A stretch of 64,000 nucleotides of DNA from Bdellovibrionales bacterium (GTDB taxonomy: Bacteria > Bdellovibrionota > Bdellovibrionia > Bdellovibrionales > JAUICD01), in NCBI GenBank assembly GCA_965203275.1, contig OZ241865.1:672001-736000 (forward strand), written 5' to 3'. The position numbers are program-made. This document shows positions 24,001-30,000 of the stretch, piece after piece (within the stretch, counting starts at the first letter, position 1; every line of letters starts with the position of its first letter).

Positions 24001-27000
24001 GGTGTGATGGGATAGATGGCGGTGCGAATTCAAGAGAGTGTAAAAAAGCAACACCAACAGCTGGAGGAGGTGGTACAAGATCAGCACAGCGAAGAACATC
24101 AGGACCATCAGGGCAGTGTCGCAATAGTCGTAGGAATGAATGTCTTTCAGGTTCCCCCACGGTTCTAAGTGGTACAGCCACACATCATAAATGGAAGTGT
24201 GGAGCAGACTTCTGCTCAATAAGAAAAGTATCATATAGACATGCCGGACGATGTGATAATTCTCTTAAGTATGGATGTTCTGCAGGTTCACTTAAGCAGT
24301 TGCCTGAAACAGACACTCATTATAAATGGAAGTGTAAGGGAATTGCAACTCGGTCAGTTTCTTGCTCAAAAAGAAAATAAAATATGGTGGTGGCTCTAAT
24401 GGCGGAGTTAATCCAGGGCCTTCTGAGGACGCAGACGGAGGAGGCGATTAGTTTCACTAAAAGTAAACTAGCCGTCATTTTCACTAAAAGTGGTCAGGCT
24501 TTCTAGGTGATGACCATTTTATCGACGTGAAATAAACATCTTGTTTCCCTAACATGGTGTTAAGAAATGAGGAGATCCTCTCTACTCAAAATCCTGAGTT
24601 TGACAGTTGAAAAAATAAAGTTGAGTAAAATCAGTGGGTTATGAGTCGAAAGGGATTTTGTGCCACTACAATATCAGTTTTTGTGGCAGAATTTTGGACA
24701 ATCTATTAAGATTAATTAAGATTGTGATTGTGATGATTCTACTTTTAATTGTTTTGCTGGTATTTTGACTCCTATTGCTTTAAATACATCTGTTGCATGA
24801 CCTGTGATATCTGTTCTCATCCACAGGGTCTTATCTTTTAATGTGACAGGCACTGCTCTGACTTCTTTTAACTTTAACATTGCTTCTGAAACACTCAGTT
24901 GCCTTGCTTGTTTATTCTGACCTGTCATTAATTCTTCTCTACATTTAATACCTTTTTCATAAAGCTTCTTGCTTAAATAAGCTTCACAAAGATATGATAT
25001 AAAACATAATACCAAGTGACCTAATATCCTCTTGTCTGTCCAATGAAACATCGGACGAGTCTTGAGAAAACCTTTTATATCTCTAAATGCTTTCTCTACC
25101 TTCCAAAGATGTTTATAATTTAATATAAGCTCTTTAGATGATAAATTTTTTGCATTTGTAATAATTCCAAAAAATCCATCTTGTTGTTCTGATGCTTTTA
25201 TTGCATCTTCATTTAATTGAGGCTTGTCTTTTGAAGTAGGATGACTTATGTATTTTTTGTAATTCATATTAGATATAAAGTCTATATCTTCCTTATGTTC
25301 TGCTAGAATATCTAAAGAACGATAAATATCCTGAAGATGAAGTTCTTTTTCTAAAAAGTCCGGATAAAATAACTTCTGCCAGTGTGAAAAAACTTGCAGT
25401 TTAGAACATGGCTCTACAAATCGACTTATAACCAATGTGAAAATAATCTTAACAAAATCAAATCGCAGTTTAGGATGTTTTTTCTTCAAATCTGCTAATA
25501 ATTCATAGAGGTTCAACTGTTTAAAAATAGCATCTATAATAAGCAGAGGACCTAAGATAAATGTATTTTTTATATCAATTTTTTTAGCTAATTGATTCGC
25601 AGAGATGATATCTAAATGACGACTGATCAGTTCGGATAAGTCTTCTAATCGATCATCTTTAGACTTTCCTAAAGACATAAGTGTTCTATGGTGACTTTTA
25701 CCATTTTTCCAATAGCTTTCAGCTATTTGATAGTAAGTTTGTCCTCTAGAGTTTTTTGTTTTCTTTATGAACATAAGAATATACTAGAACAAAAATACAA
25801 AAAATCAAGAAAAAAACGACTTTTTAACGCACTGCATTCGAATTTTGTGCCACTAGGATTTTTTACAAAATCCCAAAAATTCAAGCTTGCAAATCCCTCT
25901 AACACCTATAAATAAAGCATTCTTAAAAAAAAAGATATCCACATTTGCAAATCAACTGTCAAACTCAGGAACATCTTGTTTCCCTAACATGGTGTTAAGA
26001 AATGAGGAGATCCTCTCTACTCAAAATGAGTGGATTTTTTAGGTGTTGCCTATTTTGTCAAAGGCGAAAGCCTTTGCAGGCAACACCAAAAAACACACCA
26101 GAGGTGTGGCTCATTTTGAGTGAAATGTTAAGGAAAAAGTTCCTTCTAATACCTGATGCCGGTTTGCCTGATTGCCAGATCCCGGATCCCAGAGGGAGTT
26201 TCTTTTTTTTGTTTTTTTATTCTCTTTTAGATTCTGCGTAATCTCAAATAAAAAATCTGGATGCAAATGGTAATGAGCAATCAGCCCGAAGGCTTACCGC
26301 AAACCTCACAGACAAAAAATCCTCACAATGGGAAACATCAAAGTCAAATAAGAAGAGTCTGAGCTTTGCTAGAAGATCAGCTAATAAGTGCATTGTCACT
26401 AGATCTGATGGTTTGCAAAGTAGAGATAGCTTCAGAGACAGATACCTTTTTTTGATCTTTTATTTGCTCTTGCAATGCTTTTTTTAAAGTAGTCAACTCA
26501 CCAGTTGTCGCACCAGCTGTCATCGCTAAATTAGCAGTGTGTAGATGCAGATGGCCTTTCACAACACCTACAGTCGATAAGGCTCTTAAAGCCCCTAAGT
26601 TCTGCACCAGACCTACTGCTGCTATGATACGGGCTAACTGCTGTGCAGAAGTCACCTTTAACATCTTTAAACACATTTTAGCTGTAGGATGTAAACGTGT
26701 CACACCACCCACAGTGCCAAGAGACATAGGTGTTTCTAAAAAGCCTTTTAAACAACCAGAATCCATTTTCCACTTAGTGATTGAAGTATAACGACCACTT
26801 CGAGAGGCGTATGAATGCAAACCAGCCTCAACAGCTCTCCAATCATTCCCTGTAGCAATCAATACAGGGTCTATCCCATTTAACACCCCTTTGTTGTTGG
26901 TTGTAGCCCTATAAGGATCGACCTCCGCAAAATAAGAAGCTTCCTCTATTTTATGACCTAAATCAGAATCCATCTTTTCTAAAACCACCTCCGCTTGAAC

Positions 27001-30000
27001 GCATTTGGTATCAGATAAGTTAGACACAATACACATAGTGATTTTTTCACCTGTGAGTTTTTCTATTTTACTTTTAAGCCCTTCACAAACTTGATTGATC
27101 ATATTGGCACCCATAGCATCTTTTGTATCTACATAAAGATGAAAAATAGCCATCAATCCGTTGTCTTTTTTCCTAGATAAGATACGCAACTTAAGATCGT
27201 AAAAACCACCGCCTCTCTGTTGAAGACGAGGTACAAGCTTATTAGCATCTTTTAAAATTTCCACTCGATGGATTTGGAACATTTCCTGTAAATGAGCTAT
27301 ATCTTTTACTTGAGCTATCTGCATTTGGCCAATAGCTCCATTCCCCTTACAAGCTGTTGTGATGACGCCATTTTCTCTGACCCATTTAGCTGTCTTACTT
27401 GCAGCTGCAATGATAGAAGTTTCTTCCACTGCCATAGGTACCACATAAGATTGACCATCAATCACAAAGTGAGGAACTATTCCCAACGGTATTTGGAAAA
27501 AACCAATGACATTTTCAATGAAATGCTCTGCCATGTTATGAGACACAGGTGAGCCTTGCTTTAGATGTGCTATGTCTTCTAGTGACAAAAGTCCCCAATC
27601 TAAAAGCTTCTGATACCTTTGCTGTCTGTTAAGTTGTGAAAAGCCTTGTATCTCTTGAGGATCAATCATATAAATTCTACCTTTTTATTTATCTTTTGTG
27701 ATTTTAAATCTTTGGTGTTGATGAGTCCTAAACAAAATAAGGCAACTTTTAATTCATACTCTATTTGAGACATCCAGTCAATAAGAGCATCTACTCCACC
27801 CTCAAGTGCTTTTTTGAGAGCTGGCTGAGCAAAGCCTACAGCCGATGCACCTAAAGCCATAGCTTTAGCAACATCCAAACCTGACCGCAAACCGCCTGAT
27901 GCCCAAACTTCATAATCTGGTCTGACCTCTTGAGCAGAACACAGAGATTCTACTGTGGTATTACCCCATTGCCGAAAAACTTGAGCAGCTTTAAAATGCA
28001 GAGAATTTTTAGGAGATCGTTGTCCTTCTATGCGTCCCCAGTGAGTCCCTCCCATGCCACTGACATCCACTGCTGCTAAACCAATACCATTAAGCTTTTG
28101 CAGGGTATCCTTTGAAAAACCACAACCTGTCTCTTTGAGAATAATAGGTACTTTTATCTCCTTACAAATCTTTTCAATAGCTTGCAGATCATTTTTAAAT
28201 TGAGGTGTTCCTTCTGGTTGAAGGGCTTCTTGGAGAGGATTGGTGTGGATAGCAAGGGCTTGTGCCTCAAGGCTTTCAACAAGCTGTAATATTTGAGATA
28301 TTTGATTTTTCTGCACTAACTCAATGGCTTGGGTTAAGCCAATATTGCTTAAAAGCGTGATTTTGTATTTTTTAAGTTGGGTCCATTCTTGAAATGCCTC
28401 AGGATCAAAGAGTTGTCGACGTTGACTCCCTACACCTAAAATCCAACCTTTTGCCTTGCAGGCTTCTGCAAAAATTTTATTGAGAGGACCAGCCTGAGAA
28501 TGACCTGCTGTCATAGCAGCAATGTAGAAAGGAGACTTGCGTTTTTGACCTAAAATAAAACTTTCTAGTTGAATATCTTGGAAGTTTATACCAGGAAGGG
28601 CATTATGTGGCAGATGGATGGTTTCAAATGCAGATATGGCTTGGTTTTCTTTCTTGAGAGCAAGATGGATATGTTTTTGTTTACGTTCTTCAAAATTAGT
28701 CAAAAAAGATACAGGCGTTTTAGATCTCAATCTGCTGTCACCCTTTTGACCAAACTGGAAAAAGCTTTAGGATTTTCTGCTGCAAGATAGGCTAAAGATT
28801 TGCGGTCTAGCTGAATAGACGATAATTTAAGAAGATGCATAAACTTTGAGTAGTTAAGGGAATGGAGCTTTGTTGCAGCAGAGATGCGCGTGATCCATAA
28901 GGATCGCATTGTGCGTTTTTTAACTTTGCGATCTCTGTAAGCATAAGCTAAACCACGATCATTTTTTTCAACTGCGATTTTGTAACAACGACTATTTGCA
29001 CCATAATAGCCACTAGCCCTTGCTAGGACTTTTTTATGGCGTTTTCTGCGAGTAAATCCTGTTTTAACTCTCACTATGCACCTCCTAACATTCTGGAAAC
29101 ACGTTCTTTGTCTGCACTATGAACATACTGCGTACGTGTCAATTGACGCTTCACCTTAGAAGATCTTTTAGACAAAATGTGACGTTTGCCTTTTTGTTTA
29201 CGTTTGATCTTCCCTCCCTTAAGTAACTGAAACCTCTTAGAAGCACCAGAGTGACTCTTGACCTTTGGCATAAATATATGTCCTCCCTTTTAGTTAGTGT
29301 TTTTGTATTTTTATATGTGTTTTTGTATTTTTATATGTGTTTTTGTAGGTGCTTTGAATGCATAAAGTTTATTATAAAAACTTTTTTATGGTATAGCAAT
29401 GTTTTTCATAAAAATATTTAAAATACTTGCCTCAGTGTACACAAAATAGCTCTCTTTTTCATAGTTTTTTCATAATATGGCATAAATATAATAGTTTGTC
29501 GAAGTAGATGTGGATTATTTTTTAACTTTTTCAAATTTTCGGGAGGGGGGATTATATTAAAATTTGATAGGTTATTAAAGCAAATACATAAGCTAAAAAG
29601 CCATAGAAAGCAAACACCAAAACAGGGGCTTTATAACTGCCGAATTCCTTTTTAAGTATAGCTACTGTTGAAACACACTGCAAAGCAATAGCATAAAAAA
29701 CCAAAAGAGAGAGACCTGATGCCAAACTGACTTCAGCGACTATTTGATCAGAGAGAGCAGAAATATTTTCATCTGTATCTTGAATATTAAAAAGTGTACC
29801 TAAAGTCCCTACAAAGACTTCCCTAGCTAAAAAAGAAGTCAAAATAGCTACACTGAATTTCCAATCAAGGCCTAACGGATCAAAAATAGGTTCTATCCAT
29901 TTTCCAATTTGAGCTAGCCATGAGGTTTCTAAATCCTGAGAGGGAAAATAACCTAACACCCAAATAACTACCACTGTGCAAAAAATAATACCACCTGCTT

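Follow-up and report, generated by a model that had tools for sequence, protein, structure and literature searches.

A mevalonate pathway fed with HMG-CoA from leucine catabolism is the likely source of isoprenoids in this Bdellovibrionales genome. That the leucine route can supply HMG-CoA had been proposed in the genome-wide survey's note, and is supported here by a candidate enzyme for every step, by hydratase gene order in other genomes and by three comparative findings. We infer all activities, their direction and flux from the presence, absence, family and order of genes. Imported leucine would pass through a Leu/Phe/Val-type dehydrogenase and a branched-chain 2-oxoacid dehydrogenase, and then through isovaleryl-CoA dehydrogenase (IVD), 3-methylcrotonyl-CoA carboxylase (MCC) and 3-methylglutaconyl-CoA hydratase to HMG-CoA; isovaleryl-CoA of other origin could enter the same route. 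At the HMG-CoA fork, the lyase would send most of the material to acetyl-CoA and acetoacetate, the latter being recovered by acetoacetate-CoA ligase, and HMG-CoA reductase (HMGR) would divert a small share to mevalonate. Mevalonate would then pass through mevalonate kinase, a divergent phosphomevalonate-kinase (PMK)-like GHMP enzyme, a decarboxylase and type 2 isopentenyl-diphosphate isomerase (IDI-2) to FPP synthase and UppS. By standard chemistry, the isoprene skeleton would take up five of the six carbons of leucine, and the decarboxylase would release the CO2 that had been added.

In the literature searched we found no account of an obligate leucine dependence of isoprenoid synthesis in bacteria. 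The chemistry leading from leucine to isoprenoids is already known, and specialists may be partly aware of the absence of the synthase, which can be read from public pathway tables. If the proposal is true, predatory bacteria would depend on a single prey-derived amino acid for an essential lipid pathway.

The hmgR-idi2 locus and the lower mevalonate pathway

Within the window (the whole 64-kb stretch of DNA that was analysed), the following genes form the locus:

26377..27669, minus strand: hmgR, class II HMG-CoA reductase, 430 aa (TIGR00532, 339 bits against a cut-off of 260)
27666..28730, minus strand: idi2, type 2 isopentenyl-diphosphate isomerase, 354 aa (TIGR02151, 348 bits against a cut-off of 281)
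28727..29074, minus strand: rplT, ribosomal protein L20 (TIGR01032), overlapping the start of idi2
29074..29271, minus strand: first gene of the rplT-idi2-hmgR run, translation inspected; presumably rpmI (L35)-like, from sequence likeness and position

The earlier assignment of HMGR and IDI-2 to 26377..28730 was borne out, both proteins scoring above their NCBIfam cut-offs; they are the only pathway genes in this interval, the others lying elsewhere in the genome. The idi2 and hmgR genes overlap by 4 nt. In the order, the gene conserved next to the mevalonate operon on its upstream side is rplT, and relatives show the same arrangement. The best solved relative of the hmgR product is 6dio (E 3e-96), and the HMG-CoA reductase catalytic motifs are present, their residue roles being assumed by us.

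A different explanation would be that the cell obtains mevalonate, HMG or HMG-CoA from its prey or host and that its reductase is either superfluous or serves degradation, as the Pseudomonas mevalonii enzyme does. It would agree with a predatory or host-linked lifestyle, with the presence of the lyase required for mevalonate breakdown and with the name 'degradative' of the NCBIfam HMGR model. However, hmgR shares a biosynthetic operon with idi2, the kinases and the decarboxylase, and 197 of 201 sampled genomes of the order, each at least 90% complete, retain it. As is well established, the usual Gram-negative prey use the MEP pathway and contain no mevalonate. Neither mark of the degradative mvaAB type of P. 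mevalonii, an NADH-type cofactor helix or an operon with the lyase, was found: the cofactor helix has an Arg at its end, before GGG, resembles 5wpj and differs from the NADH-type motif, and an Arg ending recurred in 126 of 128 motif matches. The one CoA-transferase pattern that we used gave no match, and passages of PMC13488460 describe a related Legionella enzyme that reduces HMG-CoA with either cofactor. We regard uptake as quite improbable.

Biosynthesis through the lower pathway had been described in the survey's note as comprising HMGR, two GHMP kinases, a decarboxylase and IDI-2. Candidates exist for all of these, but the second kinase is not among the three GHMP proteins detected by Pfam, namely mevalonate kinase, decarboxylase and an HddA-like sugar kinase. 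The last (contig 832347-833318) was excluded from the pathway kinases because its best match is HddA-like. Mevalonate kinase has TIGR00549 as its best model (114 bits, under the cut-off of 163), and its orthologue closes the operon in relatives; the diphosphomevalonate decarboxylase scores 142 bits with TIGR01240 (cut-off 171) versus 68 for the phosphomevalonate type. A fourth GHMP-like gene, at contig 2325590-2326459, is detected by neither Pfam nor NCBIfam and has its operon slot between hmgR and mvd. The predicted structure of its product has a GHMP fold (pLDDT 82.9), with mevalonate kinases at the top of the Foldseek matches and the PMK 1k47 at rank 26, and its top profile match is Lin0012 (3k17), which we take to be a phosphomevalonate kinase. 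We take this gene to be the probable second pathway kinase and candidate PMK, which may act before or after the mevalonate kinase candidate.

The absence of the MEP pathway is supported: IspG was found neither in this genome nor in any of the 201 order genomes (controls positive in 9 of 14), and the GHMP proteins of this genome include no IspE-type match. Across a phylum sample of 151 genomes, IspG occurs in 46, all from the five families without HMGR. Isoprenoid demand is evident in this genome from UppS, above its cut-off, and an FPP-synthase-like gene.

HMG-CoA synthase in the genome, the order and the phylum

A PF01154 profile search of the genome gave no match to HMG-CoA synthase at E ≤ 10, and an unfiltered search of 35,090 six-frame segments with a synthase HMM built from 11 sequences found only FabH, at 52 bits versus 451-590 for the training synthases; positive controls were detected. 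Together with the occurrence of synthase in only 3 of the 201 order genomes, these searches uphold the claim that the enzyme is missing here and in nearly all of the order. The trait had been called order-wide and not special to this genome; it is wider still, since 102 of the 151 phylum genomes have HMGR and a single one, itself an HMGR genome, has the synthase.

A synthase gene could have been missed through an assembly gap, a plasmid or a search filter: the stated marker completeness is 90.4%, the genomes of most relatives are drafts, the genome searches use a first-look filter and extra replicons would be invisible. Yet the two ends of the contig meet in frame within a reading frame that we take, from its motifs, to be aspartyl-tRNA synthetase-like, and the replicon therefore looks closed; the unfiltered search was negative as well, and the synthase-negative relatives include many single-contig genomes. 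The curated model of strain HD100 (PMC7529429) also has no synthase gene. We consider this explanation very improbable and largely refuted. Frames of ~800 aa containing second HMGRs, considered as fused synthases, gave no synthase match; the one scanned holds HMGR and a weak phosphotransferase domain.

Acetyl units might also be turned into HMG-CoA by an enzyme that has escaped recognition, be it a synthase without homology to the known ones, FabH or a thiolase with a second activity, or the lyase running in reverse from acetoacetate and acetyl-CoA. Thiolase, acetoacetate-CoA ligase and FabH are all present, and nearly every sampled genome of the order has the lyase (196/201). Against such a source, FabH is above its own model cut-off and sits beside rpmF as a regular member of the fatty-acid cluster, the mevalonate operons inspected hold no extra gene, and the lyase, generally held to favour the cleavage direction, is apparently absent from one relative (G203). 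In print, the published Bdellovibrio model assumes a gene-less synthase reaction (parts of PMC7529429), and prey acetoacetyl-CoA is the feed that the predatome study reportedly favours (passages of PMC4451040). Because there is no synthase, prey acetoacetyl-CoA would be unusable in that way, and feeding from leucine would challenge the reported view that access to it is why predators use mevalonate. Overall, we judge an acetyl-unit source unlikely.

The leucine route and its links to hmgR

Leucine breakdown, the source that we prefer, has its candidate genes scattered in this genome and unlinked to hmgR; two lie in the window and the others outside it:

3358..4350, plus strand: 2-oxoacid dehydrogenase E1 alpha, probable branched-chain enzyme (PF00676)
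40363..42243, plus strand: mccA, biotin carboxylase/carrier subunit of MCC, 626 aa, by likeness to the operon gene of relatives
Contig 462034-462951: HMG-CoA lyase
Contig 584766-585824: 2-oxoacid dehydrogenase beta subunit
Contig 810015-811226: IVD
Contig 896834-898519: mccB
Contig 1421018-1422124: Leu/Phe/Val-type (ELFV) dehydrogenase
Contig 2045704-2046948: 2-oxoacid dehydrogenase E2
Contig 2383037-2383822: hydratase

Checks of IVD, E1 and the Leu/Phe/Val-type dehydrogenase cover this genome only. The 18 best of 20 solved matches of E1 alpha are labelled 2-oxoacid or 2-oxoisovalerate dehydrogenase, at weak E values of 1e-22 to 3e-16, and an AceE-like E1 is present separately. The top five solved matches of IVD are isovaleryl-CoA dehydrogenases (E 6e-93). 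MCC beta matches human MCC at 2e-210, versus 2e-126 for geranyl-CoA carboxylase and 5e-75 for PCC; its single best match, 9tps, is labelled propionyl-CoA carboxylase beta and is followed by seven mostly MCC entries. At 8 of 8 loci with mccB-ech-mccA-bccp-hmgL operons in relatives, the operon's biotin carboxylase finds its best match (46-56%) in the mccA product. As the survey's note had cautioned, the hydratase lies under all NCBIfam cut-offs; among nine solved matches none is labelled methylglutaconyl-CoA hydratase, and a pattern scan for the catalytic residues returned nothing. Gene order now adds support for a candidate 3-methylglutaconyl-CoA hydratase, all 29 best orthologues, in other genomes, adjoining MCC subunits. 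The single PF00682 match in the genome is the lyase, hence no LeuA-type enzyme was found and the organism is probably a leucine auxotroph.

Among the 201 order genomes, MCC beta and the hydratase each occur in 198. Both are present in 193 of the 197 HMGR genomes, the four exceptions being drafts of 50-140 contigs, and they are retained even in single-contig genomes of 1.3-1.6 Mb. The three order genomes with a synthase also retain the leucine route; one of the three counted, the synthase-like gene of G060 (E 2.6e-57), has ketosynthase-like and reductase genes around it and may serve secondary metabolism. Lyase loss failed as an order-wide test, all five genomes without a lyase match being drafts. 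Since the lyase is retained too, and MCC is kept by 10 of 10 genomes of an MEP family (f21), the leucine route is maintained for catabolism anyway and co-occurrence alone proves little. MCC was found in at least 13 of 49 HMGR-less genomes, a lower bound not taken as a contrast, because the MCC query at E ≤ 1e-130 misses other operon types.

Three comparative findings are better evidence for leucine feeding than co-occurrence. First, hmgR is divergently adjacent, head-to-head, to mccB and the leucine operon in five genomes from three families (G231, G237, G267, G282 and G288), and likewise to mccB at locus L228. In G267, a single cluster brings every mevalonate gene together with the leucine operon and a prenyltransferase; the G288 cluster also has a squalene-hopene cyclase, which exceeds its cut-off. 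In a quick tree the linked loci fall into two sister groups, at a fork that is not resolved; the linkage probably arose once or twice, not six times. Second, in families f15 and f16 the MCC query at the above threshold matched none of 11 genomes, and the synthase is absent from these 11 HMGR genomes too. A looser family search recovered a different carboxyltransferase-hydratase operon in 5 of 5 tested, and these five of the 11 no longer look like counter-examples. Third, G203, a 94% complete draft of ~50 contigs, has a carrier, an AUH-like hydratase and a carboxyltransferase without a lyase between them, a lower mevalonate operon and no PF00682 match; its carboxyltransferase scores nearly equally for the MCC and PCC types, and its biotin carboxylase was not located in this draft.

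With modest confidence, we extend the proposal to two thirds of the phylum and, through a related gene cassette, to most Legionellales, which would run an obligate leucine-fed mevalonate pathway. Their cell-wall carrier lipid and quinones would depend on scavenged leucine, and MCC and the hydratase would be essential. One lineage would have fused both pathways into a leucine-to-hopanoid cluster; another would have dropped the lyase, making the route purely biosynthetic. The unrecognised GHMP family would be the missing phosphomevalonate kinase, and the prey-acetoacetyl-CoA explanation would be replaced.

Comparison with known systems

The leucine-to-sterol route of Trypanosoma brucei and Leishmania has the same five steps to HMG-CoA, followed by HMG-CoA reductase, and IVDH deletion in T. 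brucei abolishes leucine label in sterols (passages of PMC5993337). T. brucei retains HMG-CoA synthase, leucine being one of several feeds (same source), whereas in these bacteria without synthase leucine or isovaleryl-CoA would be the sole feed. The liu pathway of Pseudomonas aeruginosa shares IVD, MCC alpha and beta, hydratase and lyase, and relatives of our genome keep a liu-like operon; as described in parts of PMC9636800, liu is purely catabolic, while here HMG-CoA would also be the isoprenoid entry. The same source holds the mevalonate pathway independent of branched-chain amino acid degradation, as it has its own synthase. With the canonical bacterial mevalonate pathway (the DPMD route; sections of PMC6107057 and PMC13001223), our system has in common a class II HMGR, mevalonate kinase, diphosphomevalonate decarboxylase, IDI-2 and the exclusion of MEP. 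Unlike it, there is no HMG-CoA synthase here, and the PMK candidate belongs to a divergent GHMP family, Pfam- and NCBIfam-silent in this genome.

Myxococcus xanthus mvaS mutants are reported to survive on leucine-derived HMG-CoA. In this species, the alternative isovaleryl-CoA route links HMG-CoA and leucine intermediates via LiuC (parts of PMC9636800); MvaS is present, and the main direction of the link is from HMG-CoA to isovaleryl-CoA. For B. bacteriovorus, model iCH457 contains HMGR (Bd1627), MGCH and the lyase (PMC7529429 supplement, in part) and fills the gap with a gene-less HMG-CoA synthase reaction of confidence score 1; the main text gave no match for 'mevalon', 'HMG' or 'isopren'. 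That gene-less reaction would be corrected by our proposal.

Legionella belongs to a different phylum, and a synthase-like gene occurs in 1 of 3 named species tested. Its HMGRs are 52-55% identical to hmgR here, and the same PMK-like gene lies directly behind hmgR, together with an MCC operon; at the L. quinlivanii locus no PMK-like neighbour was seen. Section 18 of a 2026 review (PMC13001223, seen in part) leaves open why most Legionella species are without HmgS and all without PmvK, a question to which leucine feeding, if true, offers an answer.

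Mevalonate genes and a hidden candidate kinase

The source genome, G000, is a single contig of 2.57 Mb whose two ends join in frame (marker completeness 90.4%). The following genes of the window are relevant here, with hmgR and idi2 overlapping each other directly behind rplT:

26377-27669, minus strand: class II HMG-CoA reductase, hmgR (TIGR00532, 339 bits, cut-off 260)
27666-28730, minus strand: type 2 IPP isomerase, idi2 (TIGR02151, 348, cut-off 281)
40363-42243: biotin carboxylase (MCC alpha of the leucine route)
3358-4350: 2-oxoacid dehydrogenase E1 alpha

Named sources of reductase homologues are mostly Bdellovibrionales and Bacteriovoracaceae, followed by Legionellales. 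The reductase has Arg at the end of its cofactor helix, like 5wpj, but no NADH-type motif of the kind given in the passages of PMC13488460, which fits a biosynthetic role.

In relatives, the mevalonate operon runs rplT-idi2-hmgR-X-mvd-mvk, where X is a divergent, phosphomevalonate kinase-like GHMP gene. The place where relatives continue this operon is occupied in the window by two paralogous Gly/Cys-rich proteins of 866 and 991 aa with signal-peptide-like starts (18585-21185 and 21405-24380, plus strand) and an adjoining transposase-like gene (24716-25774), just downstream of hmgR. Family f5 keeps only hmgR behind rplT (L106, L107, L004 in G017; L056 in G004), and genome G017 carries a second full mevalonate operon at another place.

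Pfam recognizes three GHMP proteins in G000, a mevalonate kinase, the decarboxylase and an HddA-like kinase. The genome-wide survey's note counts two GHMP kinases; besides the mevalonate kinase, the candidate for the second pathway kinase is the Pfam-invisible X. The protein at contig 832347-833318 (minus strand, L001) was rejected as mevalonate kinase, as the models favour the HddA-like type; this kinase is retained even in relatives of 1.3-1.4 Mb (also L206, L208, L210). The X orthologue of G000 (contig 2325590-2326459) has no match in Pfam or NCBIfam. A profile of 16 X sequences first matched 3k17 (Lin0012, presumably a phosphomevalonate kinase homologue), then mevalonate and phosphomevalonate kinases, and the predicted structure (pLDDT 82.9) has a GHMP fold. 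By operon position and fold, we read X as a putative phosphomevalonate kinase; the lower mevalonate pathway is complete in G000 only if this hidden gene is included. The presence of UppS and an FPP-synthase-like protein indicates that demand for isoprenoid precursors exists.

Absence of HMG-CoA synthase

The synthase model PF01154 had no match in G000 at E ≤ 10 and was positive in 8 of 14 controls. The true synthase of a relative matched only FabH (E 0.002), as did an HMM built from 11 synthases and run unfiltered over 35,090 six-frame segments of G000 (52 bits, compared to 451-590 bits for its own training sequences). A synthase gene that is present but was missed is therefore hardly to be expected. 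Among 201 order genomes of at least 90% completeness, TIGR01835 scored above cut-off in two and reached E 2.6e-57 in one more, with all other matches at FabH level; HMGR was found in 197 and IspG in none. The phylum sample of 151 genomes yielded HMGR in 102, synthase in one and IspG in 46, all of the latter in the five HMGR-less families; the two samples have 31 genomes in common, and related genomes do not count as independent observations. Thus, the absence of HMG-CoA synthase is solid and phylum-wide, in agreement with the survey's view of a gap reaching through nearly all of the order and not special to one genome, and its claim of an absent MEP pathway holds for IspG, the MEP gene examined.

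The synthase of G017 lies apart from its mevalonate genes, among chemotaxis-like genes, suggesting later gain. Five synthase-less phylum genomes encode proteins of ~800 aa whose HMG-CoA reductase domain differs from the class II enzyme and is joined to a weak phosphotransferase (APH) domain (L149:5021-7444, L150:3012-5357; also L151, L153, L154).

Leucine breakdown as the probable source of HMG-CoA

The proposal that a full leucine route can supply HMG-CoA finds a candidate gene for each step in G000. There are an ELFV-family dehydrogenase, E1 alpha, E1 beta and a non-SucB E2, and an isovaleryl-CoA dehydrogenase (IVD) whose five best solved-structure matches are all IVD. MCC beta matches human MCC at 2e-210, geranyl-CoA carboxylase at 2e-126 and the best ordinary PCC at ~5e-75, although its topmost structure match bears a PCC label. 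MCC alpha and one stand-alone crotonase, the hydratase candidate, are also present, and HMG-CoA lyase and acetoacetate-CoA ligase both score above model cut-offs. A divergent AceE-like E1 of 899 aa (contig 2452677-2455376, L315) falls far under them. PF01039 matches only two carboxyltransferases (contig 896834 and 1921111), of the MCC and PCC types, and none of the AccD type.

The leucine genes are scattered in G000, whereas relatives have an operon mccB-ech-mccA-bccp(-hmgL), found at 8 of 8 fetched loci, with hmgL in seven. The hydratase, whose identity had been doubted, stays below the cut-off of all models scored; the better answer is that each of the 29 best orthologues in other genomes adjoins an MCC gene. 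MCC beta and hydratase each occur in 198 of the 201 order genomes, including single-contig genomes of 1.3-1.6 Mb. IVD and dehydrogenase assignments refer to G000 alone; MCC beta, hydratase and lyase were surveyed across the order. No isopropylmalate synthase was found in G000, the lyase being the sole PF00682 match, so leucine is probably imported, judging from gene content. The metabolic model of Bdellovibrio bacteriovorus HD100 counts leucine among the auxotrophies (PMC7529429, in part). Import of mevalonate, HMG or HMG-CoA as the answer to the synthase gap itself appears quite improbable.

Such co-occurrence is weak evidence, because the lyase is retained in 196 of 201 order genomes and MCC in 10 of 10 genomes of a MEP family, so that ordinary breakdown of leucine is reason enough to keep the genes. 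Three other observations are more telling. Firstly, hmgR stands head-to-head with mccB in 5 of 91 phylum genomes having both HMGR and an MCC orthologue (G231, G237, G267, G282 and G288, which are all the members sampled from three families); the named locus L228 brings the cases to six. G267 unites a lyase-mccA-hydratase-mccB operon, hmgR, X, a prenyltransferase, mvd, mvk and idi2 in one block; G288 and G282 have squalene-pathway genes in addition, and the cyclase of G288 passes its cut-off. A quick tree places the loci in two sister groups at an open fork, so the linkage counts as one or two events, and a chance join in some lineage is possible. In G231, the leucine operon runs on into a gene pair (L165:5250-7998) lacking homologues in G000, which we take to resemble a 2-oxoacid:acceptor oxidoreductase possibly substituting for the dehydrogenase complex.

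Secondly, the 11 HMGR genomes missed by the MCC query (families f15 and f16) are without HMG-CoA synthase, and 5 of 5 tested have another operon of carrier protein, lyase (in four), two-glutamate crotonase and carboxyltransferase, in f15 presumably resembling the Bacillus yng operon. The crotonase of one of them, G203, matches 5jbw, which we assume to be Myxococcus LiuC, and the AUH methylglutaconyl-CoA hydratase 1hzd. With this operon, every HMGR lineage examined has, as far as sequences tell, a route from isovaleryl-CoA to HMG-CoA via one of two gene sets. Thirdly, in G203 carrier and hydratase are directly adjacent with no lyase there, the carboxyltransferase is of ambiguous type, the idi2-kinase-mvd-kinase-prenyltransferase operon is full, and neither PF00682 nor IspG matched; in this one draft genome (94%, ~50 contigs) the reductase would be the sole visible outlet.

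We consider leucine catabolism feeding HMG-CoA to the mevalonate pathway the best explanation and a probable one; an unknown route from acetyl units is unlikely.

Literature and known systems

In the open full-text literature, outside of which most subscription papers lie, we found no statement of the synthase gap of Bdellovibrionota or of a leucine feed, in keeping with the survey's impression of four papers: the passages of PMC6107057 mention neither leucine nor Bdellovibrio, PMC13001223 classes Bdellovibrio, Pseudobdellovibrio, Bacteriovorax and Halobacteriovorax plainly as MEV, and passages of PMC4451040 and PMC4646340 relay the predatome result together with the idea of acetoacetyl-CoA from prey. 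Passages of PMC12321486 were uninformative on this point. In the HD100 model, the HMGCOASi reaction is assigned to no gene and carries confidence 1 (PMC7529429, in part), indicating that its authors ran into the gap and filled it. Section 18 of PMC13001223 states that most Legionella are without HmgS and all without PmvK, and asks for research into alternatives.

The reductases of Legionella share 52-55% identity with that of G000. In L. tucsonensis and L. qingyii X lies directly behind hmgR (~280 bits); at ~11250 in L240 and L241, from named Legionella species, it is a candidate for the PmvK said to be missing. Of 25 genomes of unknown completeness that underlie named loci, 18 have MCC beta, and one of five tested (L. 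quinlivanii) has a synthase-like gene. In this small sample, leucine feeding may explain Legionella as well. In two other bacteria hmgR adjoins a divergent HMG-CoA-lyase-like gene (28%; L272:11245-12249, L286:8993-9958), probably for mevalonate catabolism.

Though unproven, leucine feeding is of interest because it is directly testable in a laboratory predator and touches two open points of the literature. Myxococcus mvaS mutants are reportedly rescued by leucine. Links between HMG-CoA and leucine are also treated in PMC9636800 (in part). By the synthase test, G000 does not belong to the canonical mevalonate pathway; its pathway would work like the leucine-to-sterol route of trypanosomes described in passages of PMC5993337.
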